Below, piece after piece: positions 3,818 to 50,492 of a stretch of 64,000 nt of DNA (position 1 is the first letter of the stretch; each line of letters opens with the position of its first letter). This DNA is from a virus (taxonomy: Duplodnaviria; Heunggongvirae; Uroviricota; Caudoviricetes). The position numbers were made by a program, and so were the translations under genes. The notes under the pieces are model-generated. The model was not told where the DNA came from. It was given only the letters and a program-made list of their open reading frames with translations, and made no database searches. The stretch lies in IMG/VR virus record IMGVR_UViG_2571042445_000002; one strand, given 5' to 3'.

Positions 3818-6800
3818 ATGTGCGCAGATAAAGTAAAGAATATTGTCACCTTATCTTCGGACATTTCCGCTCCACTAATTGCAGACATGCAATACTTTGA
3901 GCTGTATAGCACCGAAGCTCTAAACAGGAAGATGAAAAATATCGTTCTGCCCGGAGTGTACTGTGGGTTTGAACCGGTGCCAGGGGATGGTCTGTTTGTG
4001 CGTATTACATCCGAGAAAACAGAGGGAAGAGGGGCGGCTTCAATTGACGTGGGTAAATGTCAGATATCCGTGCAGCAAGTCAGTGATGTTCTTGTTCCTG
4101 TAGAAGCTGGTGTAACGACAATCATCGTTCTTGAAGCTAATTACGAACATGGAGTGAAAACCAGCCAGGTAGATAGCTCATCGGATATTAGCGCAGCGAG
4201 AATTATTGCTCTCGTTGATGAGGAAATAGCATCTAACCAGATTGAGCTATGCCGCGTGATCGTGCCTGACAATGCTCAAGCCGTTACCGCAGATATGATT
4301 AGCACTGAATATCGTGCTAATCGTGCTGTTGGTGTTGAGTTTTCCAGTGCTTTGGATAGTGACGAAGAATATAAAGCCGCAACACCTCTTGCTATCAGCA
4401 CGTTAAACAAACTAAAAGCTCCGGTTGATAGCCCGGAGTTTATTGGTATACCTAAATCTCCAACTCCGGAACAAGGTACAAACAGTACACAAATCGCAAA
4501 CACTGCCTTTGTTCAGGCCGCAATAACCGCCCTTATTGATGGTTCTCCTTCGGCGTTGGATACGCTGAAAAAAATTGCAGATGCAATTAACAATGATCCT
4601 CAGTTTAGCCAGACGATTAATGCTGCTTTAGCTCTTAAAGCACCGTTATTAAGCCCGGCATTTACAGGGGTGCCAACAGCGCCTACAGCGTCACAAGGTA
4701 CGAACAACACTCAGATTGCAACAACCGCTTATGTTCGTGCCGCTATTTCTGCATTGGTCGGCTCATCACCAGAAGCTCTTGATACTCTTAATGAGCTTGC
4801 TGCGGCGCTGGGCAATGACCCGAACTTTGCGGCTACAATGACAAATGCCCTGGCAGGTAAGCAGCCTCTCGACGCAACCTTAACCGCGCTCGCTGACCTG
4901 GCGACGGGGGCAAATAAATTACCGTACTTTACCGGAACAGACACTGTAGCCCAGACTGATTTAACGTCAGTCGGTCGCGATATTCTTGCTAAAACAAGCA
5001 CACTGGCTGTTATCCAATACCTTGGTTTAAGAGAACTCGGAACCAGCGGAGAAAAGCTCCCCCTGTTGAGCACAGCTAATACCTGGAGTGCACGCCAGAC
5101 TTTCAGCGCGGGGATCACTGGTACGCTGACCGGGAACGCCGATACTGCGACGAAATTAAAAACAGCCAGAAAGATTAACGGTGTGGCATTTGATGGGTCG
5201 GCAGATATTACTCTGACCCCTGAAGATCTTGGCTTAACGGATATTGCTTCTCAAGCTGGTAACGCAGTTCAGCGTTCTGGCGACACAATGGGGGGGCAGC
5301 TAAAAATTGGCACAATAAATGCCCTTCGAATATTTAACCAGGACTTTGGCCTTATCTTCAGGAGATCCGAGGAATATCTTCATCTTATCCCGACAAATGA
5401 AGGGGAGGGTGAAAATGGTGACATCGGGCCATTAAGACCATTTTCTATAAACTTAAGAACTGGGTTGGTGTCCATCGGTAACGGCGTAAAAGTTGGCGGT
5501 GGTATTACTGGTAATTTGACGGGAAACGCAGATACTGCCACAAAGCTCAAGATAGCTCGAACGATCGGCGGAGTGTCATTTGATGGCAGCGCCAATATCG
5601 ACCTGCCTGGCGTGAATAAAACAGGTAATCAGAGCACTACCGGCAATGCTGCAACCGCAACGAAACTTCAGACGGCACGCACAATCGGCGGAGTGTCATT
5701 TGATGGCAGCGCCAATATCGACCTGCCTGGCGTGAATAAAACAGGTAATCAGAGCACTACCGGCAATGCTGCAACCGCAACGAAACTTCAGACGGCACGC
5801 ACAATCGGCGGAGTGTCATTTGATGGCAGCGCCAATATCGACCTGCCTGGCGTGAATAAAACGGGTAATCAGAGCACTACCGGCAATGCTGCAACCGCAA
5901 CGAAACTTCAGACGGCAAGAACAATCGGCGGGGTGGCATTTGATGGCACTGCCAATATCAACCTGCCGGGTGTGAACATTGCTGGTAACCAGAACACAAC
6001 AGGTAATGCTGCAACCGCTACAAAACTGCAAACAGCCCGCACAATCAACGGTGTTAAGTTTGATGGTTCTGCGAACATTTCGATACCAACAATTACGTCC
6101 AGAGGGCGTGTTACTGCGCTCACCAGTACAACGCAAGGTGCTACTACTGGATTGCAGATGTATGAGGCGTACAACAACGGCTATCCTTCTGCTTACGGGA
6201 ATGTGCTTCATCTTAAGGGCGCAACTGCCGCTGGTGAAGGCGAGTTGTTCATAGGTTGGAGCGGCACAAGTGGTGCTCATGCGCCTGTACATGTACGTTC
6301 GCGACGAGATACTGATACAGCCAGTTGGTCTGAGTGGGCGCAGGTCTACACATCGAAGGATTCCATCCCTGGTGTAAATACAACAGGCAACCAGAACACA
6401 ACCGGAAACGCGGCGTCTGCAACGAAATTACAAACGGCAAGAACTATTGGTGGTGTTTCATTTAATGGCACCGCAAACATCGACCTGCCGGGCGTGAATA
6501 AAACAGGTAATCAGAGCACTACCGGCAATGCTGCAACTGCAACGAAACTACAAACAGCGCGCACAATAGGCGGGGTTTCGTTTGATGGTACAGCAAACAT
6601 CAATCTTCCGGGCGTTAATATTGCCGGAAATCAAAATACAAGTGGTAATGCAGCTACAGCGACAAAGTTAAAAACTGCCAGAAAAATAAGTGGAGTGGCT
6701 TTTGATGGTTCTGCAGACATCACATTAACGGCAAGTCATGTTGGTGCGTTACCAACAACAGGTGGTACTGTTACCGGTGAAATTATATCCAGCAGCCAAA

Positions 6801-7327
6801 ATGCTATACGCCTAACTTATAATAATAACTATGGATTCCTAATAACTAATACTGGATATAGTTTCCAGATATCAACCACTGGGCAAAATGTTAATGGTGA
6901 TGTCGTTTACACTCCATTAAAGATAGATGGCGGTGATGGTCGCGTAGAATTAGGACGTGCTGATGGTCATGTAAGGGTTATGGGGAATTTATCTGCCGCT
7001 GGTCAGATTACCCCTGGTAACTATAGTAATTTCAACACGAAATATCAGGCTAAAAACACAGCATATGCCAACATTCATGGATGGCATAAGGATACATCAA
7101 CTAAGGTGATGATGCAGTGGGGGTTTATAACAAATTTAACTCCAGGAAGCGTGGTTAAATTTCCGACTACTTTTCCTGAGGCGTGTGCGGTAGTTGTGAT
7201 TTCGCCTCACAGCGGGAATGCTGTCAATTCAATTCTTTATACATACAACCACTCAGTCACTGGTTTTACAGTGAAAAGTAGCTCCACTGATAAAATATAT
7301 GCACAGTATGTTGCTTATGGTTATTAA
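3818..7327 (+). CDS. tail fibre protein with internal 40-aa shaft repeats
   Basis: 1169 aa; about 8 copies of the unit TGNQSTTGNAATATKLQTARTIGGVSFDGSANIDLPGVNK; followed directly by a Tfa gene. Confidence 0.8.
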   Translation: MCADKVKNIVTLSSDISAPLIADMQYFELYSTEALNRKMKNIVLPGVYCGFEPVPGDGLFVRITSEKTEGRGAASIDVGKCQISVQQVSDVLVPVEAGVTTIIVLEANYEHGVKTSQVDSSSDISAARIIALVDEEIASNQIELCRVIVPDNAQAVTADMISTEYRANRAVGVEFSSALDSDEEYKAATPLAISTLNKLKAPVDSPEFIGIPKSPTPEQGTNSTQIANTAFVQAAITALIDGSPSALDTLKKIADAINNDPQFSQTINAALALKAPLLSPAFTGVPTAPTASQGTNNTQIATTAYVRAAISALVGSSPEALDTLNELAAALGNDPNFAATMTNALAGKQPLDATLTALADLATGANKLPYFTGTDTVAQTDLTSVGRDILAKTSTLAVIQYLGLRELGTSGEKLPLLSTANTWSARQTFSAGITGTLTGNADTATKLKTARKINGVAFDGSADITLTPEDLGLTDIASQAGNAVQRSGDTMGGQLKIGTINALRIFNQDFGLIFRRSEEYLHLIPTNEGEGENGDIGPLRPFSINLRTGLVSIGNGVKVGGGITGNLTGNADTATKLKIARTIGGVSFDGSANIDLPGVNKTGNQSTTGNAATATKLQTARTIGGVSFDGSANIDLPGVNKTGNQSTTGNAATATKLQTARTIGGVSFDGSANIDLPGVNKTGNQSTTGNAATATKLQTARTIGGVAFDGTANINLPGVNIAGNQNTTGNAATATKLQTARTINGVKFDGSANISIPTITSRGRVTALTSTTQGATTGLQMYEAYNNGYPSAYGNVLHLKGATAAGEGELFIGWSGTSGAHAPVHVRSRRDTDTASWSEWAQVYTSKDSIPGVNTTGNQNTTGNAASATKLQTARTIGGVSFNGTANIDLPGVNKTGNQSTTGNAATATKLQTARTIGGVSFDGTANINLPGVNIAGNQNTSGNAATATKLKTARKISGVAFDGSADITLTASHVGALPTTGGTVTGEIISSSQNAIRLTYNNNYGFLITNTGYSFQISTTGQNVNGDVVYTPLKIDGGDGRVELGRADGHVRVMGNLSAAGQITPGNYSNFNTKYQAKNTAYANIHGWHKDTSTKVMMQWGFITNLTPGSVVKFPTTFPEACAVVVISPHSGNAVNSILYTYNHSVTGFTVKSSSTDKIYAQYVAYGY
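5564..5923 (+). repeat. three near-identical tandem 120-bp repeats inside the tail fibre gene
   Basis: period exactly 120 bp (5564, 5684, 5804); more diverged copies continue to about 6720. Confidence 0.9.
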
Positions 7328-21126: not shown

Positions 21127-24100
21127 TTGGACAAAATAATTGATTCAATTAGCCAGGCCACCAGCATTGGGGCGCTGATTGAAATTGTTAGTCGGTTGCA
21201 TAAACCGCGAGCTGTAGTGACCTTTGGCGTTAAGAAAGTCGATGGCGTCAGTATTCAGAAAACACGCCGGGCAGCAAACAACGCCGCAGTAAATCTTCTT
21301 AATTCCCTTCCGCCTGGCTTCGATGGGGCGAAATTAACTGACGAACAGCGCCAGATTCTTGCCGGGTATACCGGTGAAGGCGGCCTGACAGATGGTGAGG
21401 GCAGCCAATACGAATACTATACGCCACAGTTTATGGCAGAAGGTATATGGGATCTCTTCGGCGACTACGGTATTGATAGCGGTCACGTACTGGAACCGTC
21501 AGCAGGCACAGGTATTTTCCAGGAGACAAAACGGCAGGGCATGATAATGACCAGTGCCGAACTGTCTCCGATCTCCGGTCGAATAAACCAGCTTTTGCAC
21601 CCGGAAGATGATGTGAATATCGGGGCGTTTGAGGCGCTGGCGGCGAAAGATGCAATGTATGACCACGCAGTTGGTAACGTACCGTTTGGCGAAGGGCGTT
21701 CCGGCGTCGCCGGGCTTGATCCGGCATATGCAAACGAGAAGAACGTTGGCAATTATTTTGTGCTGCGCACGATCGACAAGGTTAAGCCTGGTGGACTAAT
21801 TGTATTGGTGGTGCCGAATGGCATGACCGATGGTACGAAATACAAAAAATTGCGCGATAAAGTCAGCCGTAAAGCGGAATTTTTGGGCGCGCATCGTATG
21901 CCTTCTGGTACGTTCAGCGAATCCGGTACAGATACCGTGGTGGACGTATGGGTATTGCGTAAACACCCGGAAACCTTCCTGGAGATGATCCCCGACACGG
22001 ATGATGCAACGCTCAAATCGGCAAACGTCCTTTGGGATACCTTCCTCAAAGGGAAATGGTTTACAACCGAAGGGAAGCGATTTGTTTACGGCGACATGGA
22101 ACGCACCAGCTTCCGCAATACCCTGGTGGTGAAAAAGGACGGTCGTGTATCCAATGAGTCGATGAAAACCGCGTTATCATGCCGCTTTGAAAGCCGTATT
22201 AATTGGGATTTGCTCGGAGTAACTACCCAGGCATGGCAGGGCGCAAAAGTAGGGGATAAGCGTCTTGTAGGCGGTATCTGGCATGAGTTTGATGGCCTGA
22301 AATGGGTTAAGGACACGACAACCAAATCCTCCGCGCTTGATGTAAGTCGATATGGTGTTTCGACGTTTGGCGATCTGCAGATCGCGTTCCAGTCAACAAA
22401 CGGGATTCTGGCTTTGTCATGGGACCAGATATCGGCGATCGCGTCCGACTATCCATCGGTTGTCAGTGATGAAGTGGCAGCAATGATTCGCTTTGCTGGC
22501 AAACAGCGAGAAAAAGACAGGGAGCGCGTTATGCGCGGTGCGTTGATAGGGCAGTTGATCAACAAGGCACTTGATTTGCGTAACCTGGGGGTGAACGTTG
22601 ATGACAAACTGGCAGATGCATCCCGCCTGGCGGCAGCAGAAGTTGCGAAGTATGGACCACCGCACGCGATTAAGCTGAATGGGCTTGCTGAAGCTGGCGC
22701 TAAAAACTGGATGACGTTCACTGGCAATGTGAAACAGGATGGTTCCACTTCTGACCTTCTGGCAGGGCGACTTGATGTAACGGATGGTGCTGCCGGTATT
22801 GACTTTACACGTCCGGAACAAGTGATAGCACATCTTTTCAGTGATGTAGCCCTTAATCCTATAACGCTGGGCGACTTTCGTGAGGCGTTTGCTGGTGAAC
22901 TGCCAGAGGACGACGACGCGGCCCTTGAATACCTGGCGAAATTTGATGATATCGCTATTGATGGGTATGGCTGCCTGCTGCCGATGGACCGCGCCACCAG
23001 CGGCGATATTGTAACCAAAACAGCATTGCTGGTGGGCTGGCGTGATGCATCAACAGGTGAGCAGAAAGCGAACTTTGAGCGTCAGTTGGCGAAAATCGAA
23101 GAGAAACGCATTTTCACGCCACTAAATAAAGTCACCGTTAATCTGAACGCCCGCTGGCTGGATCGCCGCTTGATAAAAGAGTTCCTGGCAGAGCAGGGCT
23201 ATGACGAGTTTAAGTACACTGAACCTGATCTGAAGGTCGTCGATGGCATTCTGGTATCTCCGGACGATTACGAAGGTAAGGACGGGGTATTTACCGGCTA
23301 TCAGCTACGAACCGTAAACGGCAAAAACGGGAATGAGTTCAAGAAGGCCAACAATAAAGACGGCTTCCTGAACCAGTTAGAAAACTACCTGAACGGTGTT
23401 AAACCGCGTGGGCAGAACGCTAACGAGTACCTGGATAAAATTGCTCAACTGGAAGTTAGCTTTAACGACTGGTTACGCACCCACCCGCAGGCGGATCAGA
23501 TAGCCCGTGACTATAACGACGCATTCAATGGCTTCATTCCGTTCACGCACTCTAACGCACCGCTTGGCCTGGAAGGGATTAGTGGAAAGCGCATTCCTCT
23601 GACTTATCAGAATGAAGAAGTTCGTCGCTTGTCAGAAGATGGGCGCGGCATCATGGGATTTGGTACCGGGCTGGGTAAAACCACGACCGCGCTTGCGCTT
23701 GAGGCGTATAACTTCGAAACAGGTCGTACTAAACGCACGTGTATTGTTGTTCCGAAGGCGGTTTATCAGAACTGGTATCACGAGGCACAGAGCTTCTACA
23801 GTGCTGATGCCTTCGCCAATATGATGTTTATCGGTCTGGATGAAGTTCGTGATGACAGCGGAAATATTCTGACCGCTCCGGTGCTTGATGAAAATGGCGA
23901 ACCCCGCCTCGACAGTAACGGGCAGCCTCTTACCAGAAATGTTGTGAAAGAGTCCGCCAGCGCCGTTATCGTTCAGCGCATGAACATGATCCCGTCGTCA
24001 AATTGGCGAACGGTCATCATGACAAAAGAACAATTCGCGTCTATCCCGCTACGAGAAAAAACCATCGAGGAGAACTCACAGCAAGCTGTCTTTAATGCTG

Positions 24101-27100
24101 TGGAAATGGGGCGTCTTGACCTGGCGTCTGGTAAACACCGTGATGCGCAGAAGAAGAACAAGATTAAGGATCAGGCCGCGAATACCGGTACAACGAAGAA
24201 GCAGAATATCCCGTACTTTGAGGATATGAACTTCGATAGCGTGATAGCCGACGAGGGGCATAACTACCGCAACTCCTTTAATGCCGGGCGTGAAGCGGGA
24301 CAACTGGCATATTTGCCTAACCCGGCAGTATCCAAGATGGCCCGCGACATGGCTGTAAAAGCTGCGTACATGATGAAACGCAACAACGGGCGTGGTGTAG
24401 TCATGCTGACGGCAACACCGCTGGTGAACAGTCCGATTGATGCCTTCAACATGCTGTCTACTGTCATTCCGCAGGAAGAGTGGATGCGCATGGGCATCAT
24501 TACGCCTGATGATTTCGTTCGTGTGTTTGGTAAAACAGCCACAGTTCAGGTCCAGAAAATTTCCGGGGAAGTGGAAGAGAAGCAGGGGCTGGTTGGCTTC
24601 CAGAACCTTGATGGCCTGCGTGGTATTTTCCATCGCTGGACTACTCTGAAGACTGCTGCGGACGTCGGGGCGACGGTTAAAATCCCTGATATTGTCGAGA
24701 ATACCTTGCAGATCCCGATGACAGGGGAGCAGGAGGCTGCTTATGAAGAGCTTCGTAAGCGTGCACAGGAGTTAAGTAGTAAAGATGCGCTGACGGTTGA
24801 TGAAAACGGGCATATCACAAACGAAAAACCGGATGATTTCATCTTCTCCATCATCCGCGACATGGATAAGGTTGCTATAGATCCGGATCTGTATGCCAGT
24901 GCGATTACATTCCAGTTCCCCGTTGAGCTTGCAGACAAGGTAAAAGCTATTGCTGATGCCCTGCCAAAAGTAGCTGGCGGTAAAGTGGCAGATGATGCAG
25001 ACGAGGCCGAAGAAGACGGCGCTGGTGGGCTGGTTAGTACGCGCACCAGTAAGGTAGTGAAGACCACCTTTAGTGAACATCCGGCGCATGTTGAAATACG
25101 TGCCAGCATTGAACTGGAAGCTGAAATACTGAAGGCCATTGCTGCCGCCGGGATTGATATGCAGCAGGTATCACACCCAATCCCGCCGAAGTATGCCGCG
25201 CTGATCGAAAACCTTCGTGAAGGTCTGAAGAACGGTAAACAAATTGTCTTCATTGATGAAAAAGCCCAGCACCAGAAGCTGCGCCGTATTATCGCCAGTG
25301 CACTGCAAATGCCGGAGCAGGAGATAGGCATTATCAATGCGACGACCGTTAGCCAGGCTGGCGGCATCAAGCTGAAGAAGGTGAATAAGCCGACTGAACC
25401 TACTCCGAATAAAAATGGTGAATACAAAGAAGGGGCATGGGAAACCTACTACAGCAAACTTGCCCAATATGAGGATTATCTCTCAGCTAAAAATGATGCT
25501 GGCCTTGAGGGTATGGAAGGCATTGCCGCCGACTATAACGAAGGGCGCACGCGCATAATTATCTGTAACAAGAAGGCTGAAGTAGGTATTAACCTGCATA
25601 TCGGGACAACCGATATCCACCACCTGACACTACCCTGGACACCAGCCAGTATCGACCAACGAAATGGGCGCGGTGCGCGCGTAGGTTCACCGCAAGAGAA
25701 GGTCAATGTTCACTACTATTGTGGCAAAGGCACATTCGACGACTTCCGTCTGGATACGCTGAAACGTAAGAAAGACTGGATCAAGATGGTGATGACCTCC
25801 GACATGTCAGAGATCGCCAATGGTGATGCGGATGATGCTGATGAACGCGCCATTATGCTGGCGGCAAACCCGGAAGAACGCCGCGCAATCATGGCTCGCC
25901 AGGCGCAAGAGCGTGAAGAACGTCTGAAACTGAAAGCACAGCGCGAGGCCAACAATGCTCTCGATATCTACCTGAAAGCGGCAAACGCCGCTGGAAAAGA
26001 TATCGGCATGATGGAGACAGAACTGAAAAGCGCGATGGAACAGATAGAGTATTACCAGCGAAATCTTGACGACCTGATAAAAGCGGGTACGAACAGGAAT
26101 GGGCAAAAATTCGCGCTTGAGCAGTTGAGTAGCTACAGAAAACGTGCGCGGGTGCTGCGGTTTGCGATCACCAGGGCAAAAGACGCGGATACCATAATGA
26201 AACGCTCTCGTGGTGATGTGGAGCGCGCTATTAAGTCTGGTGTGCTGGATATCAGTATCGATGTTATTCAGAACCCACAGGAATATATGCGCACTGACAA
26301 GAATATCCTGTTGCATAAAGGTAGTTATTACCGTGCAGTCATTGATGATCGCGAAACAACAGCGATTGTCCGGGTGGAAAAAATTGACGGTGAAAAAGCA
26401 CAATACCTCTGCCGTATCGCCTGGCTGGATAGAGCAAGTCGTTACGCTCGAGCACCGGGGTCAATCGTTACATTGCCGTTTGACTCTGTGATTGAAGCGG
26501 TAACTTTTGAAGAGGGGGTAGCTGAATCGCGCGCAACGGCTGCGCGTGGTGTTCAGTGCCACCAGCTATCAACAATACTTACTCGCGATCAGTTCTATGA
26601 TGCTATTCGCAATGGGGTAATGAATGTTATTGCTGGTAAACCTGGTAATGCATGGGGCGGTGGGTCAGCTATTAAATACTGGGCATATCGCACAGATGAT
26701 GGTCAGATCGCGCTGTCATCGGCCTATGATGGCGTGATAGGCCAAAAAATCGGGCGAGCATCGGATATAGCACCTGAACGATGGATATATCCAGATGGCA
26801 ACGATGAGGCGCTGAAGCGTGAAGTGGCAAAAATACAAGCCAGTGATAACCCGCTGAATATCGTGGACGGCGAGGGATTCCTCCAGGCATTGTATGGGTA
26901 TGATTACATCCAGGGAATGCAGGCATGGGGCGCACAGGCAACGATGGATGATGTTGTCCAGGAGTTCGAAAACTGGATGGCTGGGCGTGGTCTGTCAGGT
27001 CGTTCGCTTAATAAAGTCACTTCTGAAGATATTCTTAGCTTGTTCCGCAAACCGTCCGGAGAAGGTCTGGAATCATTCTGGAGGACCGTGCTGGCATACC

Positions 27101-27963
27101 GTTTATTCAAGGGCAGAATGAAAGCCTTTAGCAATATCGATGATATTGAACGGATGTTTAATCAGGTCAAGATCGCCAAAATTAAGACGAAGATCGAAAA
27201 AACACGTTCTGCGCTGGTGGCCTGGCGCGATGCATTGTTTGAGCAATATAAATCACTCAGTGATGCAGATGGATGGGCGGCATTGGAACAGTTGGCGAAT
27301 AATGGGGTAGATGGAGCGAAACTCGCCATAGTCCAGGCTGATAACCCCCTGGAATCACCGGCAGCACAGTGGATTAAGGTGGGGGCTGTCATCAATGCAT
27401 TTGATGAAAAACACATTAGTAAGGACGATTTTGCTGATGCTGTTTCTGTTAATCGCCTGGTAGAAATGGCTACCCGCCGCGCCCGTGAGTTGAAAGACGG
27501 TGACTATGTGAATGAGTTGCCGGATGCGCTCAAATCAGCAACGTGGCAAGACTATGTATCGCTGAAAAACGGCGGGGCCACCGAATCAGAGATCGCGGAA
27601 AGGCTTGAACAGGCTGAAAGCAAAAGAGAAGAGCAGGCGGCAGTGGCTGAAGCCAGAGCTGATGAAGCGGCGAATGATGACTATATCATTGTGGTTAATG
27701 ATAAGCCGATTCGCGCTAAGGCGCGTGTTCGCGGGCGCTGGTGGAGTGTCAGCGAGGACGTCGGTGCGGTTTATCTCATTGCCGACCAACCAGGTTCCTC
27801 GACAATACGGAACGCCAAAGACGCGATTAAGAAGATTGGCGGGCGTTTCTGGAATTTTGAAGCAAACCCGGTTGCTGATGTGAACTTTGACCGTCCTGCA
27901 TGGATGGTATCTACGCGTTACTCGGTAGATGAACTGCGTAAAATAATCGCCGATGCGGCCTAA
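21127..27963 (+). CDS. darB: DarB-like giant methyltransferase-helicase, putative antirestriction protein
   Basis: 2278 aa, TTG start after GAGGGGGG; MTase-like motifs LEPSAGTGIF and VGNVPFG; SF2 helicase motifs GFGTGLGKTTT, DEGHNYRN, QRNGRGARVG; size near P1 DarB. Confidence 0.65.
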   Translation: MDKIIDSISQATSIGALIEIVSRLHKPRAVVTFGVKKVDGVSIQKTRRAANNAAVNLLNSLPPGFDGAKLTDEQRQILAGYTGEGGLTDGEGSQYEYYTPQFMAEGIWDLFGDYGIDSGHVLEPSAGTGIFQETKRQGMIMTSAELSPISGRINQLLHPEDDVNIGAFEALAAKDAMYDHAVGNVPFGEGRSGVAGLDPAYANEKNVGNYFVLRTIDKVKPGGLIVLVVPNGMTDGTKYKKLRDKVSRKAEFLGAHRMPSGTFSESGTDTVVDVWVLRKHPETFLEMIPDTDDATLKSANVLWDTFLKGKWFTTEGKRFVYGDMERTSFRNTLVVKKDGRVSNESMKTALSCRFESRINWDLLGVTTQAWQGAKVGDKRLVGGIWHEFDGLKWVKDTTTKSSALDVSRYGVSTFGDLQIAFQSTNGILALSWDQISAIASDYPSVVSDEVAAMIRFAGKQREKDRERVMRGALIGQLINKALDLRNLGVNVDDKLADASRLAAAEVAKYGPPHAIKLNGLAEAGAKNWMTFTGNVKQDGSTSDLLAGRLDVTDGAAGIDFTRPEQVIAHLFSDVALNPITLGDFREAFAGELPEDDDAALEYLAKFDDIAIDGYGCLLPMDRATSGDIVTKTALLVGWRDASTGEQKANFERQLAKIEEKRIFTPLNKVTVNLNARWLDRRLIKEFLAEQGYDEFKYTEPDLKVVDGILVSPDDYEGKDGVFTGYQLRTVNGKNGNEFKKANNKDGFLNQLENYLNGVKPRGQNANEYLDKIAQLEVSFNDWLRTHPQADQIARDYNDAFNGFIPFTHSNAPLGLEGISGKRIPLTYQNEEVRRLSEDGRGIMGFGTGLGKTTTALALEAYNFETGRTKRTCIVVPKAVYQNWYHEAQSFYSADAFANMMFIGLDEVRDDSGNILTAPVLDENGEPRLDSNGQPLTRNVVKESASAVIVQRMNMIPSSNWRTVIMTKEQFASIPLREKTIEENSQQAVFNAVEMGRLDLASGKHRDAQKKNKIKDQAANTGTTKKQNIPYFEDMNFDSVIADEGHNYRNSFNAGREAGQLAYLPNPAVSKMARDMAVKAAYMMKRNNGRGVVMLTATPLVNSPIDAFNMLSTVIPQEEWMRMGIITPDDFVRVFGKTATVQVQKISGEVEEKQGLVGFQNLDGLRGIFHRWTTLKTAADVGATVKIPDIVENTLQIPMTGEQEAAYEELRKRAQELSSKDALTVDENGHITNEKPDDFIFSIIRDMDKVAIDPDLYASAITFQFPVELADKVKAIADALPKVAGGKVADDADEAEEDGAGGLVSTRTSKVVKTTFSEHPAHVEIRASIELEAEILKAIAAAGIDMQQVSHPIPPKYAALIENLREGLKNGKQIVFIDEKAQHQKLRRIIASALQMPEQEIGIINATTVSQAGGIKLKKVNKPTEPTPNKNGEYKEGAWETYYSKLAQYEDYLSAKNDAGLEGMEGIAADYNEGRTRIIICNKKAEVGINLHIGTTDIHHLTLPWTPASIDQRNGRGARVGSPQEKVNVHYYCGKGTFDDFRLDTLKRKKDWIKMVMTSDMSEIANGDADDADERAIMLAANPEERRAIMARQAQEREERLKLKAQREANNALDIYLKAANAAGKDIGMMETELKSAMEQIEYYQRNLDDLIKAGTNRNGQKFALEQLSSYRKRARVLRFAITRAKDADTIMKRSRGDVERAIKSGVLDISIDVIQNPQEYMRTDKNILLHKGSYYRAVIDDRETTAIVRVEKIDGEKAQYLCRIAWLDRASRYARAPGSIVTLPFDSVIEAVTFEEGVAESRATAARGVQCHQLSTILTRDQFYDAIRNGVMNVIAGKPGNAWGGGSAIKYWAYRTDDGQIALSSAYDGVIGQKIGRASDIAPERWIYPDGNDEALKREVAKIQASDNPLNIVDGEGFLQALYGYDYIQGMQAWGAQATMDDVVQEFENWMAGRGLSGRSLNKVTSEDILSLFRKPSGEGLESFWRTVLAYRLFKGRMKAFSNIDDIERMFNQVKIAKIKTKIEKTRSALVAWRDALFEQYKSLSDADGWAALEQLANNGVDGAKLAIVQADNPLESPAAQWIKVGAVINAFDEKHISKDDFADAVSVNRLVEMATRRARELKDGDYVNELPDALKSATWQDYVSLKNGGATESEIAERLEQAESKREEQAAVAEARADEAANDDYIIVVNDKPIRAKARVRGRWWSVSEDVGAVYLIADQPGSSTIRNAKDAIKKIGGRFWNFEANPVADVNFDRPAWMVSTRYSVDELRKIIADAA

Positions 27964-42083: not shown

Positions 42084-42746
42084 ATGGTCAGCACTTTTCA
42101 GGTGTTCCCCAAATACAAATGCCACAGCATCATTCGGGCATCGAAAATCAAAGATATTGTTATTGTCGGCGAAGCTTATGCGCCCATTTTTGGCAGTATC
42201 GAAGTCGTTGAGCCAAAAGGAATGACGCTTCGTGTTGATGGTGTGTTCTTGGAAAAATTCCGACCGCAAATAGGAGGATATCTCGTCACTGCTGAAAATG
42301 GCTATCTGGTCTATGTGCCAGAGAAAGCATTTGAAAAATGCTATAGCCGGGTTAACGACGCCTCCGAAAATGGGGTATCGCTCAGCATTGAAGGTCACAA
42401 TGGGGTGACATTCATTACAGCCAGGGACGTAACTATTTCTGCTGGCGGTATCGCTACTCTACAAGAAGAAATCGACCTTGAAGCAGCCGACTTTTCTGAC
42501 GCGCTGATGTGGCTGAAGGATGGCAAGAAAGTTGCCCGACGTGGGTGGAACGGCGAAAACCAATTCTGCTGGCTGGTTCCTGAAGGACAGTACCCGGCAC
42601 GAATGGAAGCCATTAAGGGATATTTTCCCGGCGACCTCGTTCCGTATGGTGCTTATTTCGCCTTAAAAAATGCACAAGGTGTAGTTGTTCCGTGGGTGCC
42701 TTCAGTTGGCGACCTGCTGGCCTGTGACTGGTTTGTTGTGGAGTGA
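42084..42746 (+). CDS. DUF2829 (Tad2-like) domain protein with N-terminal extension
   Basis: 220 aa; C-terminal ALMWLKDGKKVARRGWNGENQFCWLVPEG...VVPWVPSVGDLLACDWFVVE matches the DUF2829 signature. Confidence 0.5.
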   Translation: MVSTFQVFPKYKCHSIIRASKIKDIVIVGEAYAPIFGSIEVVEPKGMTLRVDGVFLEKFRPQIGGYLVTAENGYLVYVPEKAFEKCYSRVNDASENGVSLSIEGHNGVTFITARDVTISAGGIATLQEEIDLEAADFSDALMWLKDGKKVARRGWNGENQFCWLVPEGQYPARMEAIKGYFPGDLVPYGAYFALKNAQGVVVPWVPSVGDLLACDWFVVE

Positions 42747-43630: not shown

Positions 43631-44011
43631 TCAAATATTGGAACCATATAGTTCACGTAGTTTTTCCGCTACTGAAGATACGGGGATTTCACCAGTTGCA
43701 GCCCCCACCGCAAGTTCCACCAGCACGGGAGAATCATATACCTGTATACCGTTACGGCGTAGAAATAGCAGCGCACTGTTTAGCGCGGTACGCTTATTGG
43801 CATCATTGAATATATGCCCTCTCGCTGTAGCCACCAGGTAGGTGGCGGAGACTTCGAAAAGGTCGGTGATCTCTTCGTAGGCAACTCTGGCCTGAACTCT
43901 CCCGATAATGGCCTCTGCCCTACCCGGATCTGACATTCCCGGCAGGCCGCCGTAGCGGTTTATATTCGCATCATGAAGCGCAATAAGTTCTTCCGGTGAT
44001 ATATGCCTCAT
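43631..44011 (-). CDS. doc: Doc toxin (Fic-family)
   Basis: 126 aa, near-identical to P1 Doc as I recall it ([17 protein letters not shown]...[19 protein letters not shown]). Confidence 0.9.
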
Positions 44012-44232
44012 TATCGGTTAACCAGTTCCTTGTTGGTGGAGTCCAGGGTGTCAAACAGGGATGCAAATTCAGCATCCAGCGCCGCTTTTTTGTAGGCTTC
44101 GAAAGTAGCCTTGCTGACAATTACTGCTGGCTCACGGCCTCTGCGGGTGATTTCAACCTCTTCCCCAGCTTCAACATTGTTGAGCACTTCAGAAAGGTTG
44201 CCGCGCGCGGTACGGAAGTTAATGGATTGCAT
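44011..44232 (-). CDS. phd: Phd antitoxin
   Basis: 73 aa from [41 protein letters not shown]; overlaps doc by 1 nt. Confidence 0.9.
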
Positions 44233-44408: not shown

Positions 44409-45971
44409 ATGAAAATGACAAGTATTCAACAACGTGCAGAGCTTCATCGCCAGATCTGGCAAATTGCTAACGATGTCAGGGGGTCAGTCGATGGATGGGA
44501 TTTTAAGCAATACGTTCTGGGCGCACTTTTCTACCGTTTTATCAGCGAAAATTTTTCCAGCTATATTGAAGCCGGTGATGACAGTATCTGTTATGCGAAA
44601 CTGGATGACAGCGTAATTACTGATGACATTAAAGACGATGCCATCAAAACTAAAGGCTACTTCATCTACCCCAGTCAGCTTTTCTGCAACGTAGCTGCGA
44701 AAGCAAATACCAATGACAGACTGAATGCGGATTTAAACAGCATCTTCGTTGCTATCGAAAGTTCTGCTTACGGTTACCCTTCAGAAGCTGACATCAAAGG
44801 TTTGTTTGCTGATTTCGATACTACCAGTAACCGCCTGGGTAACACCGTTAAAGATAAAAATGCCCGCCTGGCTGCGGTTCTGAAAGGGGTTGAAGGGCTA
44901 AAACTTGGTGACTTCCACGAACATCAGATTGACCTGTTCGGTGACGCCTATGAGTTCCTGATTTCTAACTATGCGGCGAATGCTGGTAAGTCAGGCGGCG
45001 AGTTCTTTACACCGCAGCACGTCTCTAAGCTGATTGCACAACTGGCTATGCACGGGCAGACCCACGTTAACAAAATCTACGACCCGGCAGCAGGTTCCGG
45101 TTCGCTGTTGTTGCAAGCTAAAAAACAGTTTGATGACCATATCATCGAAGAAGGTTTTTTTGGTCAGGAAATCAACCATACGACCTATAACCTGGCGCGT
45201 ATGAACATGTTTTTGCACAACATCAACTACGACAAGTTTGATATCAAGCTGGGCAATACGCTGACTGAACCGCACTTCAGAGATGAAAAACCGTTTGATG
45301 CCATCGTTTCTAACCCGCCGTATTCGGTGAAATGGATTGGCAGCGATGACCCGACGCTGATTAACGATGAACGTTTTGCCCCGGCTGGCGTTCTGGCCCC
45401 CAAATCCAAAGCTGACTTTGCGTTTGTATTACATGCACTGAACTATCTTTCTGCCAAAGGTCGTGCTGCGATTGTCTGCTTCCCAGGCATTTTTTACCGT
45501 GGCGGCGCGGAGCAGAAAATCCGTCAGTATCTGGTTGATAATAACTATGTCGAAACCGTGATTTCACTGGCACCGAACCTGTTCTTTGGCACCACCATTG
45601 CCGTAAACATTCTGGTGTTGTCTAAACATAAAACAGATACAAAAGTTCAGTTTATTGATGCCAGCGAACTGTTCAAAAAAGAGACTAACAACAATATCCT
45701 GACCGATGCCCATATCGAACAGATTATGCAGGTATTTGCCAGCAAGGAAGATGTTGCTCATCTGGCGAAATCTGTTGCGTTTGAGACTGTTGTCGCGAAT
45801 GACTATAACCTGTCGGTGAGCAGCTATGTGGAAGCGAAAGATAATCGCGAAATTATCGATATCGCTGAGCTGAATGCGGAACTGAAAACCACGGTCAGCA
45901 AAATCGACCAGTTGCGCAAAGATATTGATGCGATTGTGGCTGAAATTGAAGGCTGCGAGGTGCAGAAATGA
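44409..45971 (+). CDS. hsdM: Type I restriction-modification methyltransferase subunit
   Basis: 520 aa; SAM motif [10 protein letters not shown] and catalytic SNPPYSVKW. Confidence 0.85.
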
Positions 45972-47254
45972 GCGAGTTGAGTTATCTGGAAAAATTGCTG
46001 GATGGGGTTGAGGTTAAGTGGTTGCCATTGGGGAACGTCGCTGAAATTTATGGTGGCCTAACAGGAAAGAGTAAATCTGATTTTGAGAACGGTAATGCCA
46101 GATATGTTTCATACAAAAAAATATTTGGTTATTTAGATGTGAATGATTACCCTACTGATTATGTATATATTAGTGAGGGAGAAAGACAAAATAAAGTAAG
46201 ATATGGGGATGTTTTATTTACTGGCTCATCTGAAATTGCTGATGAAGCAGGCATGTCCTCCGCCGTTACAGTACACTTCGATGAATCAGTGTATTTAAAC
46301 AGCTTTTCTTTTGGTATCAGATTCAGTAACAGCATAAAAATCAAACCGGAGTTCGCAAAATACCTTTTTCGAACCCATTTCATGCGCTCTGAAATAGCAA
46401 AAACAGCTAGTGGTGTAACACGCTTTAATATTTCAAAATCAAGATTTAAAAAAATACTGGTTCCTATCATTTGTCCTAATGATCCAGAAAAATCCCTTGC
46501 CATCCAGTCTGAAATCGTTCGGATTCTGGATAAATTTACTGAGCTTACAGCTGAGCTTACAGCTGAGCTTACAGCTGAGCTTACCATGCGTAAAAAACAG
46601 TACAACTACTATCTTGACCAGTCGCTAAGTTTTAAAGAGGGTGAGGTCGAGTTGAAAACGTTGGGAGAGATGGGGACACTTATAAGAGGCAAACGCTTTG
46701 TGAAATCCGACATAATTCCCAAGGGAGTACCGTGTATTCACTACGGTGAAATGTATACCCATTACCGCATCTGGGCGGATAAAGCAAAATCGTATATCTC
46801 TGTTGAATTAGCGTCCAAGTTAAGAAAAGCCTCATGCGGAGATGTTGTTTTTGTCTCTGCGGGTGAAACAATTGCAGATATTGGTCGTGGAACAGCCTGG
46901 TTAGGCGATGAAGATGTTGTTATTCATGACGCATGTTTTTTCTATAAAAGTTCATTGAACCCCAAGTATGTGGCCTACTTCTCAAGAACAAATTTCTTCC
47001 ACGATCAGATTAAAAAATCGATCTCTTCGGGGAAAATTTCTGCCATCAATGCCAAAGGCTTTGAAAAAGTGATTATTCCAGTTCCTTCACCAGAAGAACA
47101 AGCACGCATCGTTGCTTTCTTGGACAAATTCGACACATTGACAAGCTCCATCACCGAAGGCTTACCCCGTGAAATAGAACTACGCCAGAAGCAGTACGAG
47201 TACTATCGTGATTTACTGTTCAGTTTCCCAAAACCTGAAACTGTCAGTAATTAA
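45968..47254 (+). CDS. hsdS: Type I restriction-modification specificity subunit
   Basis: 428 aa; two AT-rich target-recognition domains around a central conserved region with TAEL repeats; ATGA overlap with hsdM. Confidence 0.8.
46541..46585 (+). repeat. 12-bp tandem repeat (gagcttacagct, 3.75 copies) encoding (TAEL)n in HsdS
   Basis: direct read of the sequence; protein [22 protein letters not shown]. Confidence 0.9.
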
Positions 47255-47375
47255 TTGACCATTGCTACCGACCGGGCCACCTTAACACCCGGTCAGTATA
47301 TAGACTATTTTTTACACGCTGGAAGTCACCATTAACGCCCTTCCGGCCCTTGCCAGACGGCACAAAGGATGCGCT

Positions 47376-50300
47376 ATGACTCATCAAACACACACCATTG
47401 CTGAATCCAATAACTTTATCGTTCTTGATAAATACATCAAAGCTGAGCAAACAGGCGACAGCTATCAGAGCGAATCGGACCTGGAACGTGAACTGATTCA
47501 GGACCTGCAAAATCAGGGCTATGAATTTATATCCGTAAAATCACAGTCAGCGATGCTGGCCAACGTTCGGGAACAGCTTCAGAGCCTCAATGGTGTGATG
47601 TTTAATGACAGAGAGTGGCGGCGTTTCACGGAGCAGTATCTGGACAACCCGAGCGATGGCATTCTGGATAAGACCCGTAAAATCCATATCGACTATATTT
47701 GCGACTTTATTTTTGATGACGGGCGTCTTGAAAATATCTATCTGATAGATAAAAAGAATCTCATGCGCAATAAGGTGCAGATTATCCAGCAGTTTGAACA
47801 GACGGGTTCTCATGCTAACCGTTATGACGTCACGATCCTGGTTAATGGTTTACCGCTGGTGCAAATCGAACTAAAAAAACGCGGGGTGGCGATTCGTGAG
47901 GCTTTCAACCAGATACATCGTTACAGTAAAGAGAGTTTTAACAGCGAAAATTCCCTGTTTAAGTATCTGCAACTGTTTGTCATTTCTAACGGCACCGATA
48001 CCCGTTACTTTGCCAACACCACAAAGCGCGATAAAAACAGTTTTGACTTCACAATGAACTGGGCGAAATCAGACAACACGCTGATTAAAGACCTCAAAGA
48101 CTTTACCGCTACCTTTTTCCAGAAACATACTCTGCTGAATGTTCTGGTGAACTACAGCGTTTTTGACAGTAGTCAGACGCTACTGGTGATGCGACCGTAC
48201 CAGATTGCAGCTACCGAACGAATTTTATGGAAAATCAACAGTTCCTATAAAGCGAAAAACTGGTCCACTCCCGAAAGTGGTGGCTTTATCTGGCACACCA
48301 CCGGTTCCGGTAAAACACTGACCAGCTTTAAAGCCGCGCGTCTGGCAACAGAACTGGACTTTATTGATAAAGTCTTCTTCGTGGTCGACAGAAAAGACCT
48401 CGATTACCAGACGATGAAGGAATATCAGCGTTTTTCGCCAGACAGCGTCAACGGCTCGGAAAATACCGCAGGACTTAAACGAAATCTGGATAAGGACGAT
48501 AACAAAATTATCGTCACCACTATTCAGAAACTTAATAACCTGATGAAAGCAGAAAGCGACCTGCCTGTATACAATCAGCAAGTGGTGTTTATATTTGATG
48601 AATGTCACCGCAGCCAGTTTGGAGAAGCACAGAAAAACCTGAAGAAGAAATTCAAACGCTATTATCAGTTTGGTTTTACCGGCACACCTATTTTCCCGGA
48701 AAACGCCTTAGGCTCAGAAACAACCGCCAGCGTATTTGGCCGTGAATTGCATTCATATGTTATTACCGATGCGATTCGTGACGAAAAAGTGCTCAAATTC
48801 AAGGTGGACTACAACGATGTGCGGCCACAGTTTAAGTCTTTAGAGACAGAAACTGACGAGAAAAAACTGAGTGCGGCTGAAAATCAGCAGGCGTTTCTTC
48901 ATCCCATGCGTATTCAGGAAATCACGCAATATATCCTGAACAACTTCCGCCAGAAAACCCACCGTACTTTCCCTGGTTCCAAAGGTTTTAATGCCATGCT
49001 GGCAGTAAGCAGCGTGGATGCTGCAAAAGCCTATTATGCGACGTTTAAACGGTTACAAGAGGAAGCCGCTAATAAATCGGCTACCTATAAACCGCTGCGT
49101 ATTGCGACAATCTTCTCCTTTGCCGCCAATGAAGAACAAAATGCCATTGGTGAAATTTCCGATGAAACTTTTGATACCAGCGCAATGGACAGCAGTGCTA
49201 AAGAGTTTCTGGACGCTGCAATTCGTGAATATAACAGCCATTTTAAAACTAACTTTAGCACCGACAGTAACGGTTTTCAGAACTACTATCGTGATTTAGC
49301 CCAGCGGGTTAAAAATCAGGATATCGATCTGCTAATTGTCGTGGGGATGTTCTTAACCGGCTTCGATGCTCCAACATTGAACACGCTATTCGTCGATAAA
49401 AACTTACGTTATCACGGCCTGATGCAGGCATTTTCCCGCACTAACCGCATTTATGACGCCACTAAAACCTTCGGTAATATCGTCACTTTCCGGGATCTGG
49501 AACGCTCAACTATTGATGCCATAACGCTGTTTGGTGACAAAAACACCAAAAATGTGGTGTTAGAAAAGAGTTATACAGAGTATATGGAAGGCTTTACTGA
49601 TGCTGCTACAGGTGAAGCTAAACGCGGCTTCATGACAGTAGTTTCAGAACTGGAACAACGGTTCCCTGACCCTACCAGTATTGAAAGTGAAAAAGAGAAG
49701 AAAGACTTCGTTAAACTGTTTGGCGAATACCTGCGTGCCGAGAACATCCTGCAAAACTATGATGAATTTGCCACGCTAAAAGCCCTGCAACAAATCGATC
49801 TTAGCGATCCTGTTGCGGTAGAAAAATTCAAAGCAGAACATTATGTGGATGATGAAAAGTTCGCTGAATTGCAAACAATTCGTCTCCCTGCTGATCGCAA
49901 GATTCAGGATTATCGTTCTGCCTATAACGATATTCGCGACTGGCAGCGCCGTGAGAAAGAAGCTGAGAAAAAAGAGAAATCAACCACTGACTGGGATGAC
50001 GTAGTTTTTGAGGTCGATTTGCTGAAGTCTCAGGAAATAAACCTGGATTATATCCTTGGACTGATTTTCGAACACAACAGACAAAATAAAGGCAAGGGCG
50101 AAATGATCGAAGAGGTCAAACGCTTAATTCGTTCAAGTCTAGGGAACCGTGCTAAAGAGGGCCTGGTGGTCGATTTTATTCAGCAAACGAACCTGGATGA
50201 TTTACCGGACAAAGCCAGCATCATTGACGCATTCTTTACGTTTGCTCAACGCGAACAGAAACGTGAAGCAGAAGCATTGATAAAAGAAGAAAATCTCAAT

Positions 50301-50492
50301 GAAGAGGCGGCGAAACGCTATATTCGCACATCTTTAAAACGCGAATACGCCACCGAAAATGGTACAGGATTAAATGATACATTACCAAAACTTAGTCCGT
50401 TAAATCCGCAATATAAAACGAAAAAACAGACGGTTTTCCAGAAAATCGTCTCGTTTATTGAGAAGTTTAAAGGCGTAGGCGGAAAAATATAG
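47376..50492 (+). CDS. hsdR: Type I restriction-modification endonuclease subunit
   Basis: 1038 aa; Walker [15 protein letters not shown]-box [12 protein letters not shown]2 helicase layout. Confidence 0.85.

Follow-up and report, generated by a model that had tools for sequence, protein, structure and literature searches.

A three-copy TAEL repeat in a Type IC hsdS gene of a P1/D6-like phage-plasmid, with one- and two-copy alleles on the same backbone

Results

The hsdMSR operon and its carrier

The stretch of DNA analysed, called the window throughout, is 64 kb long and belongs to a P1/D6-like phage-plasmid. Genes in it code for a tail fibre, a portal, a PmgS-like protein, a terminase, a DarB-like protein, a tyrosine recombinase and a dUTPase. 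Three hsd genes lie in it in the order hsdM-hsdS-hsdR, all intact and all on the plus strand:

44409-45971, + strand: hsdM, 520 aa, overlapping the start of hsdS by 4 nt (ORF list, Pfam, phmmer match to 7bst_D)
45968-47254, + strand: hsdS, 428 aa, intact, made up of an N-terminal conserved stub, TRD1, D1, TRD2 and D2 (ORF list, Pfam PF01420, phmmer, Foldseek)
47376-50492, + strand: hsdR, 1038 aa, with an EcoR124_C domain (ORF list, Pfam, phmmer match to 2w00_A)

In phmmer searches, HsdM aligns with the M protein of EcoR124 (7bst_D) from residue 1 to 520 of both proteins (1160 bits), and HsdR with that of EcoR124I (2w00_A) from residue 1 to 1038 of both (2272 bits). HsdR also carries the Pfam domain EcoR124_C (PF12008, E=2.9e-71). 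The domain match of the hsdS product is Methylase_S (PF01420), and its phmmer match to EcoR124 HsdS (7bst_A, E=1.6e-69) joins residues 1-26 with 1-26 and residues 155-428 with 135-404. The Type IC family has the order hsdM-hsdS-hsdR with hsdR set apart; here hsdR follows after a gap of 121 bp, in which there is a weak promoter-like site (47282-47311), and the promoter and terminator scans gave scores at or near the shuffled background. The Type IC organisation of HsdS is a circular-permutation state that begins and ends within D2 and has D1 at its centre (PMC3874165). HsdS of the window matches this layout, with a short conserved N-terminus, a central D1 and a conserved C-terminus, as seen in the alignment to 7bst_A and in the helices of the structural model.

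Because M and R match EcoR124 end to end and S has the EcoR124 layout, hsdMSR is, as judged from sequence, a Type IC system of the EcoR124 family. This agrees with the initial annotation, which had called the gene hsdS and likened it to EcoR124-type enzymes: the Pfam match, the full-length matches of M and R, and the alignment with 7bst_A, in which two TAEL units stand at the same position, all bear it out. Genetic complementation by EcoR124 subunits, or antibody cross-reaction with them, would very likely be positive, M and R being near-identical. Among solved structures HsdS matched only EcoR124 HsdS, in the conserved parts and in a weak alignment of TRD2, and half-site prediction gave no assignable half-site, neither recognition domain being close enough to that of a characterised enzyme.

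A phd-doc addiction module lies directly upstream of hsdM in divergent orientation (doc (Fic) and phd, 43631-44232, minus strand). The block of phd-doc and hsdMSR recurs on many IncY/IncF plasmids and P1-like phages, with different recognition domains. A search of the literature on hsd cassettes of P1-like phage-plasmids found nothing relevant. Elsewhere in the window, a 2278-aa ORF (21127-27963) has a full-length match to phrog_1685 and matches DarB-like antirestriction, DNA methyltransferase and helicase families. The window element therefore combines an anti-Type-I-restriction protein, of a kind that P1 packages into its virion, with a Type IC system of its own. A 220-aa ORF (42084-42746) lies between the dUTPase gene and the phd-doc/hsd block. 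Its counterparts in the two closest relatives described below (L001 and L002) match Pfam PF11195 (Tad2-like), and it could be an anti-defence gene.

A TAEL-encoding repeat in the D1 helix of HsdS

Tandem Repeats Finder (TRF) places a perfect period-12 tandem repeat at 46539-46584 (3.8 copies, 100% matches, no indels, score 92), and an independent repeat search finds three 22-nt copies at the same tract, in register and spaced by 12. Chance cannot account for the 34 consecutive lag-12 matches in 64 kb. The features of hsdS around the tract are as follows.

46040-46486, + strand: TRD1, the variable N-terminal target-recognition domain ("A"), limits approximate (similarity to hsdS of NZ_CP043218.1 stops at 46039 and restarts at ~46487)
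46115-46121, + strand: A7 homopolymer in TRD1, in the codons tac aaa aaa ata (sequence; A6 in the 1-copy relative L001)
46484-46624, + strand: D1, the central conserved alpha-helix, residues 173-219, which holds the repeat (AlphaFold2 model, DSSP helix H173-219, pLDDT ~80-89; conserved columns)
46539-46584, + strand: 12-bp tandem repeat, unit CTGAGCTTACAG / gagcttacagct (TRF, repeat search, sequence)
46547-46582, + strand: codons for (TAEL)3, HsdS residues 194-205 (translation; the closest relatives are without one unit, L002, or two, L001)
46675-47070, + strand: TRD2, the variable C-terminal target-recognition domain ("B"), limits approximate (match limits of relatives; identical in NZ_CP043218.1)
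47090-47218, + strand: D2, the C-terminal conserved helix, residues 375-417, antiparallel partner of D1 (AlphaFold2 model, sequence, linker counts)

The initial annotation had described a unit gagcttacagct running from 46541 to 46585. The unit and its start stand, while the end moves back by one base, base 46585 (c) breaking the unit and the last match being at 46584; the periodic tract itself begins at 46539, 2 nt before the start of the unit. The repeat is in frame in hsdS (45968-47254), where codon 192 begins at 46541, and encodes (TAEL)3, as that annotation also had it. The translated peptide across it reads LDKF-T-E-L-(T-A-E-L)x3-T-M-RKKQY. Every full TAEL unit has the codons ACA GCT GAG CTT; the DNA itself is therefore repetitive, and not the peptide alone.

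Elsewhere in the 64-kb window, only two tandem arrays have a TRF score of at least 50, both of them in the tail-fibre gene and built of 120-bp units. That gene (3818-7327, 1169 aa) carries these 120-bp (40-aa) repeats at 5564-6046 (4.0 copies, 92% matches) and 6377-6620 (2.0 copies, 78% matches). A repeat search at hsdS gave no inverted repeats. A 148-aa minus-strand ORF with a TTG start (46159-46605) is antisense to hsdS and spans the repeat; it was rejected as a gene, being probably a mechanical ORF within the well-supported hsdS.

The AlphaFold2 model of HsdS (mean pLDDT 86.7, 46 homologues used) has 7bst_A as its top Foldseek match. In the model, helix 173-219 is unbroken through the repeat and is partnered by helix 375-417, which upholds the earlier placement of the repeat in the central conserved region of HsdS. 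The limits of TRD2 are reflected in many hsdS relatives, which match just query positions 1 to ~673-707 plus the 3' end. In the alignment with 7bst_A, the TAEL-TAEL of EcoR124 stands opposite the three-TAEL tract with a 4-residue gap. The D1 linker, counted from LDKF to RKKQY, is 17 aa long with three TAEL units, equal to the D2 linker from LDKF to RQKQY, and 13 aa long with two. The equal length at three copies fits a published remark that three looks like the "optimum" number.

One, two and three copies in near-identical genes

The initial annotation would have failed had copy number been fixed across isolates; 1-, 2- and 3-copy alleles were instead found on one backbone that is at least 99.7% identical. 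The window combines recognition domains A + B with three copies. The commonest form of this pair, P0121 (424 aa, 151 contigs), has two copies and is identical to HsdS of the window minus one TAEL; all members of its cluster (11 of 11, ~186 contigs in all) are 424 aa long with two copies. The locus L002, which encodes the cluster representative P0001 (A + B, two copies), is 99.73% identical to the window over 13.3 kb, and within the 6.1-kb hsdMSR operon the two differ by 2 SNPs and exactly one 12-bp unit.

A third state occurs in P0003 (locus L001), which has A + B in the same neighbourhood with one copy: two units are lost, and a 1-bp deletion in the A7 tract (46115-46121) to A6 splits hsdS into ORFs of 55 aa and 363 aa. 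This 1-copy form was seen on 2 contigs, in which hsdS is also frameshifted. As a single observation, the A6 frameshift recalls the homopolymer that truncates HsdS of NgoAV; it may reflect nothing beyond the decay of an allele that was disabled before.

The three-copy allele itself recurs in L004, an 80-kb metagenome contig (ENA ERZ1673748 NODE_287; A + B), whose hsdS DNA is 100% identical to that of the window. The two differ further downstream of hsdS by 68 substitutions and a rearranged segment, which shows that the three-copy allele is real and inherited in at least two distinct elements. For the A + B pair the tallies are thus ~186 contigs with two copies, 2 records with three and 2 contigs with one.

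The plasmid NZ_CP043218.1 (pET6.1-IncY) has another TRD1, here called C, with the same D1, array and TRD2 (C + B, three copies). P0035 (C + B, two copies) differs from the HsdS of this plasmid only by ELTA, so a second domain pair exists in 2- and 3-copy forms and shows the same variation as A + B. Whole 12-bp TAEL units are the sole difference in hsdS between the window (three) and P0121 (two), and likewise between the C + B alleles. As an observation apart, the D1 + TRD2 module of the window is identical over 861 bp to that of NZ_CP043218.1 (L003, 2545-3765), which suggests that phage-plasmid and IncY hsd cassettes exchange modules.

Both 2- and 3-copy states are common in the family on plasmids. 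An even sample along the ranked plasmid matches to the D1 region gave 57 informative records, ~25 with three-copy spans and ~32 with two-copy spans. Nine other domain-pair clusters have essentially one length each, with the exception of P0171 (428 vs 424 aa). The exact 428-aa protein of the window was absent from a collection of ~15 billion proteins. None of the 120 best cluster representatives carried a clean three-copy tract; clustering at 90% identity hides copy-number variants. Scans of viral contigs with a flank-anchored variable-gap pattern and of genome contigs with a TRD1-anchored pattern gave no match. With a synthetic 4-copy query, matches in E. coli genomes were two overlapping pieces on 2-copy targets (spans 139-140 nt), merged to an apparent coverage of 100%, and are uninformative on 4-copy alleles.

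Long TAEL arrays in other phyla

A codon-degenerate scan for at least four consecutive TAEL units, with one genome per species, gave 30 loci (L005-L034), about two dozen of which are HsdS-like ORFs from many phyla. Carriers include Thiothrix, Enterocloster, Acetobacter, Psychrobacter, Acinetobacter, Suttonella, Oxalobacter, Mycoplasma and Mucispirillum. The arrays are perfect, lie at the same D1 position and have 4, 5, 6, 7, 9 or 10 units, copy numbers from short reads being uncertain. Examples from the scan of genome contigs are:

L023, 5554-5648: long TAEL array
L012, 3177-3223: long TAEL array
L028, 7618-7712: long TAEL array

The D2 linker was 17 residues in every full-length long-array ORF in which it was found, and several long-array ORFs stop soon after D1 and resemble half-size subunits. 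Characterised Type IC enzymes of E. coli have 2 or 3 copies, a far narrower range than these 4-10 units.

Discussion

Expected effect on the recognition sequence

The setting of spacer length by TAEL repeats has been a textbook case since 1989. In this Type IC specificity subunit the repeat is the TAEL array of the D1 coiled-coil helix, and D1 with the antiparallel D2 holds the two target-recognition domains apart. EcoR124I, with two TAEL units, recognises GAA N6 RTCG, and EcoR124II, with three, recognises GAA N7 RTCG (Loenen et al. 2014, PMC3874165). Three units likewise go with N7 spacers in EcoDXXI and EcoprrI, engineered hybrids of EcoR124 and EcoDXXI keep the copy-number rule regardless of recognition domains, and copy number changes through unequal crossing-over at the repeat (PMC3874165). 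In practice, EcoR124II is converted to EcoR124I by deletion of one TAEL unit (PMC10644984). The initial annotation had stated that the copy number, two versus three, sets the spacer length and shifts through unequal crossing-over, in line with the literature on EcoR124 (PMC3874165).

From this published Type IC work we infer both the effect on spacer length and the mechanism of recombination. Under the rule of 1 bp per TAEL unit, the three-copy enzyme would recognise the same two half-sites as its common 2-copy sibling with one more unspecified base pair between them, and the methylated adenines would be 8 nt apart rather than 7. The equal 17-aa D1 and D2 linkers at three copies count as support for this. 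It is thus highly probable that the tract is a TAEL array in D1 of a Type IC HsdS whose 3-copy form has a spacer 1 bp longer than its 2-copy sibling, and so a distinct specificity.

Comparison with known systems

The closest known system is that of EcoR124I and EcoR124II (EcoR124/3), the Type IC prototype from plasmid R124. The window shares with it the order hsdM-hsdS-hsdR and the end-to-end match of M (520 aa) and R (1038 aa). It also shares the conserved regions of HsdS, the TAEL array at the same place in D1 and the 2-vs-3-copy polymorphism between otherwise identical genes. However, both recognition domains differ from those of EcoR124, so the half-sites of the window enzyme would not be GAA and RTCG. 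The repeat codons are ACA GCT GAG CTT in the window and ACC GCT GAG CTT in EcoR124 (primers in PMC10644984). The carriers also differ, being a P1/D6-like phage-plasmid with the system next to phd-doc in the one case and R124 in the other, and the lineage of the window has a 1-copy form as well. EcoDXXI and EcoprrI resemble the window in having three TAEL units and D1 and D2 equally long, but have other recognition domains; EcoprrI in addition has an embedded prrC anticodon nuclease, whereas the hsd genes of the window have nothing of this kind between them.

A comparable effect is seen in NgoAV of Neisseria gonorrhoeae, a Type IC system with LEAT/EATL repeats, where repeat number shifts the spacer from GAC N6 TGC to N7 among natural isolates (PMC6789123). 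As in the EcoR124-type switch, the count of a tetra-amino-acid repeat in the central region of HsdS sets the spacer. In NgoAV, however, the effect goes together with a frameshift in a homopolymer, by which HsdS is cut down to a half-subunit that forms homodimers, whereas hsdS of the window is full length with A7 intact. Phase-variable Type I systems that invert or shuffle hsdS, such as pneumococcal SpnD39III, or that have simple sequence repeats (SSRs) in hsdS or hsdM, likewise yield alternative methylation and restriction specificities from one locus. They do so by site-specific inversion among several hsdS copies or by frameshifting SSRs, while the window has a single hsdS with an in-frame 12-bp unit and no inverted repeats, and its changes are apparently rare.

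Origin of the third unit and rate of change

One 12-bp unit was probably added to the array, whether through unequal crossing-over, through slippage or by gene conversion. The simplest reading of the sequences would be that a 2-copy ancestor gained this unit de novo, because the window and L002 agree on either side of the array; nor does the gain of a single unit require a donor. Alternatively, the 3-copy tract might have been imported, with function unchanged, by homologous recombination or gene conversion from a 3-copy Type IC hsdS such as that of NZ_CP043218.1, which shares TRD2. We regard this import as possible but rather doubtful. Base for base, the window matches that plasmid from 46487 to 47347, including the 3-copy array and all of TRD2, and there is one mismatch in the 2.3 kb that follow. 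Moreover, 3-copy alleles are abundant on co-resident plasmid types, and domain shuffling through conserved regions is an established route of Type I diversification (PMC3874165). Against this, no SNP separates the window from the 2-copy L002 between 45974 and 51897, save the indel, and hsdM matches that of L002 (1 SNP) but that of NZ_CP043218.1 at only 95.8%, so that any conversion tract would need to begin in the 53 bp that separate TRD1 from the repeat. Given the 861 bp shared with a 3-copy allele that has another TRD1, gene conversion is as possible as de novo duplication; each would be recombination at or around the repeat.

A different question is how often the length changes. The array could be a contingency locus, switching reversibly and at high frequency within a clone so that specificity is phase-variable, rather than a site of rare, stable allele change. 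Three length states on a backbone at least 99.7% identical, and the occurrence across many phyla of hsdS genes with 4 to 10 units in the corresponding place, speak for such switching, as does the description of SSR-driven phase variation in Type I systems, to which a variable TAEL region has been proposed to contribute as well (PMC7383803). It is nonetheless improbable here. The 11 full-length variants of the A + B pair all have two copies (~186 contigs), the nine other domain-pair clusters keep essentially one length each save P0171, the 3-copy allele has been inherited unchanged in two diverged elements, and three or four 12-bp units make a short slippage substrate. Because length is fixed within most domain-pair clusters, the observations argue for rare change in copy number.

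It is also conceivable that the extra TAEL is a passenger polymorphism, either neutral, leaving the spacer the same, or inactivating, preventing productive DNA binding. The frameshifted 1-copy relative indicates that non-functional hsdS alleles persist in the lineage. However, all three hsd genes are intact in the window, an identical 3-copy hsdS persists in the second, diverged element (L004), three copies is the state of the active EcoR124II, EcoDXXI and EcoprrI with D1 and D2 of equal length, and engineered swaps between two and three copies shifted the spacer as predicted across domain contexts (PMC3874165); a passenger role is therefore very unlikely. Assemblers can miscount tandem repeats, and the third copy might in principle be an artefact of sequencing or assembly. 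The chance of this is negligible, as the tract of 46 bp is below any current read length, and the artefact was rejected because the same 3-copy DNA recurs in three independent records, the L004 metagenome contig and the closed plasmids NZ_CP043218.1 and NZ_CP117651.1.

Significance

The mechanism is already known, being a textbook one, and nothing here is new in principle; it gains fresh instances in the allele of the window and in the natural one-, two- and three-copy series of a single phage-plasmid backbone. The series is a clean natural case outside R124, with the same domain pair carrying one, two or three TAEL units. It suits a test of the rule of 1 bp per unit with new recognition domains. 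A 2014 review (PMC3874165) listed as an open point how the coiled coil copes when just one of its helices changes by 4 residues, and the series also suits a study of how it handles such a one-sided change. For annotation, hsdS alleles more than 99% identical can differ in specificity, and clustering at 90% identity masks such variants.

A bolder view is that the TAEL array on P1/D6-like phage-plasmids is an actively used switch through which sibling elements restrict one another, and that the long arrays give widespread spacer-length or on/off phase variation. We think this unlikely. If it were true, near-identical phage-plasmids could be excluded or out-competed and their methylation "passport" escaped, and the arrays of 4-10 units would point to widespread, largely uncharted phase variation of Type I systems.
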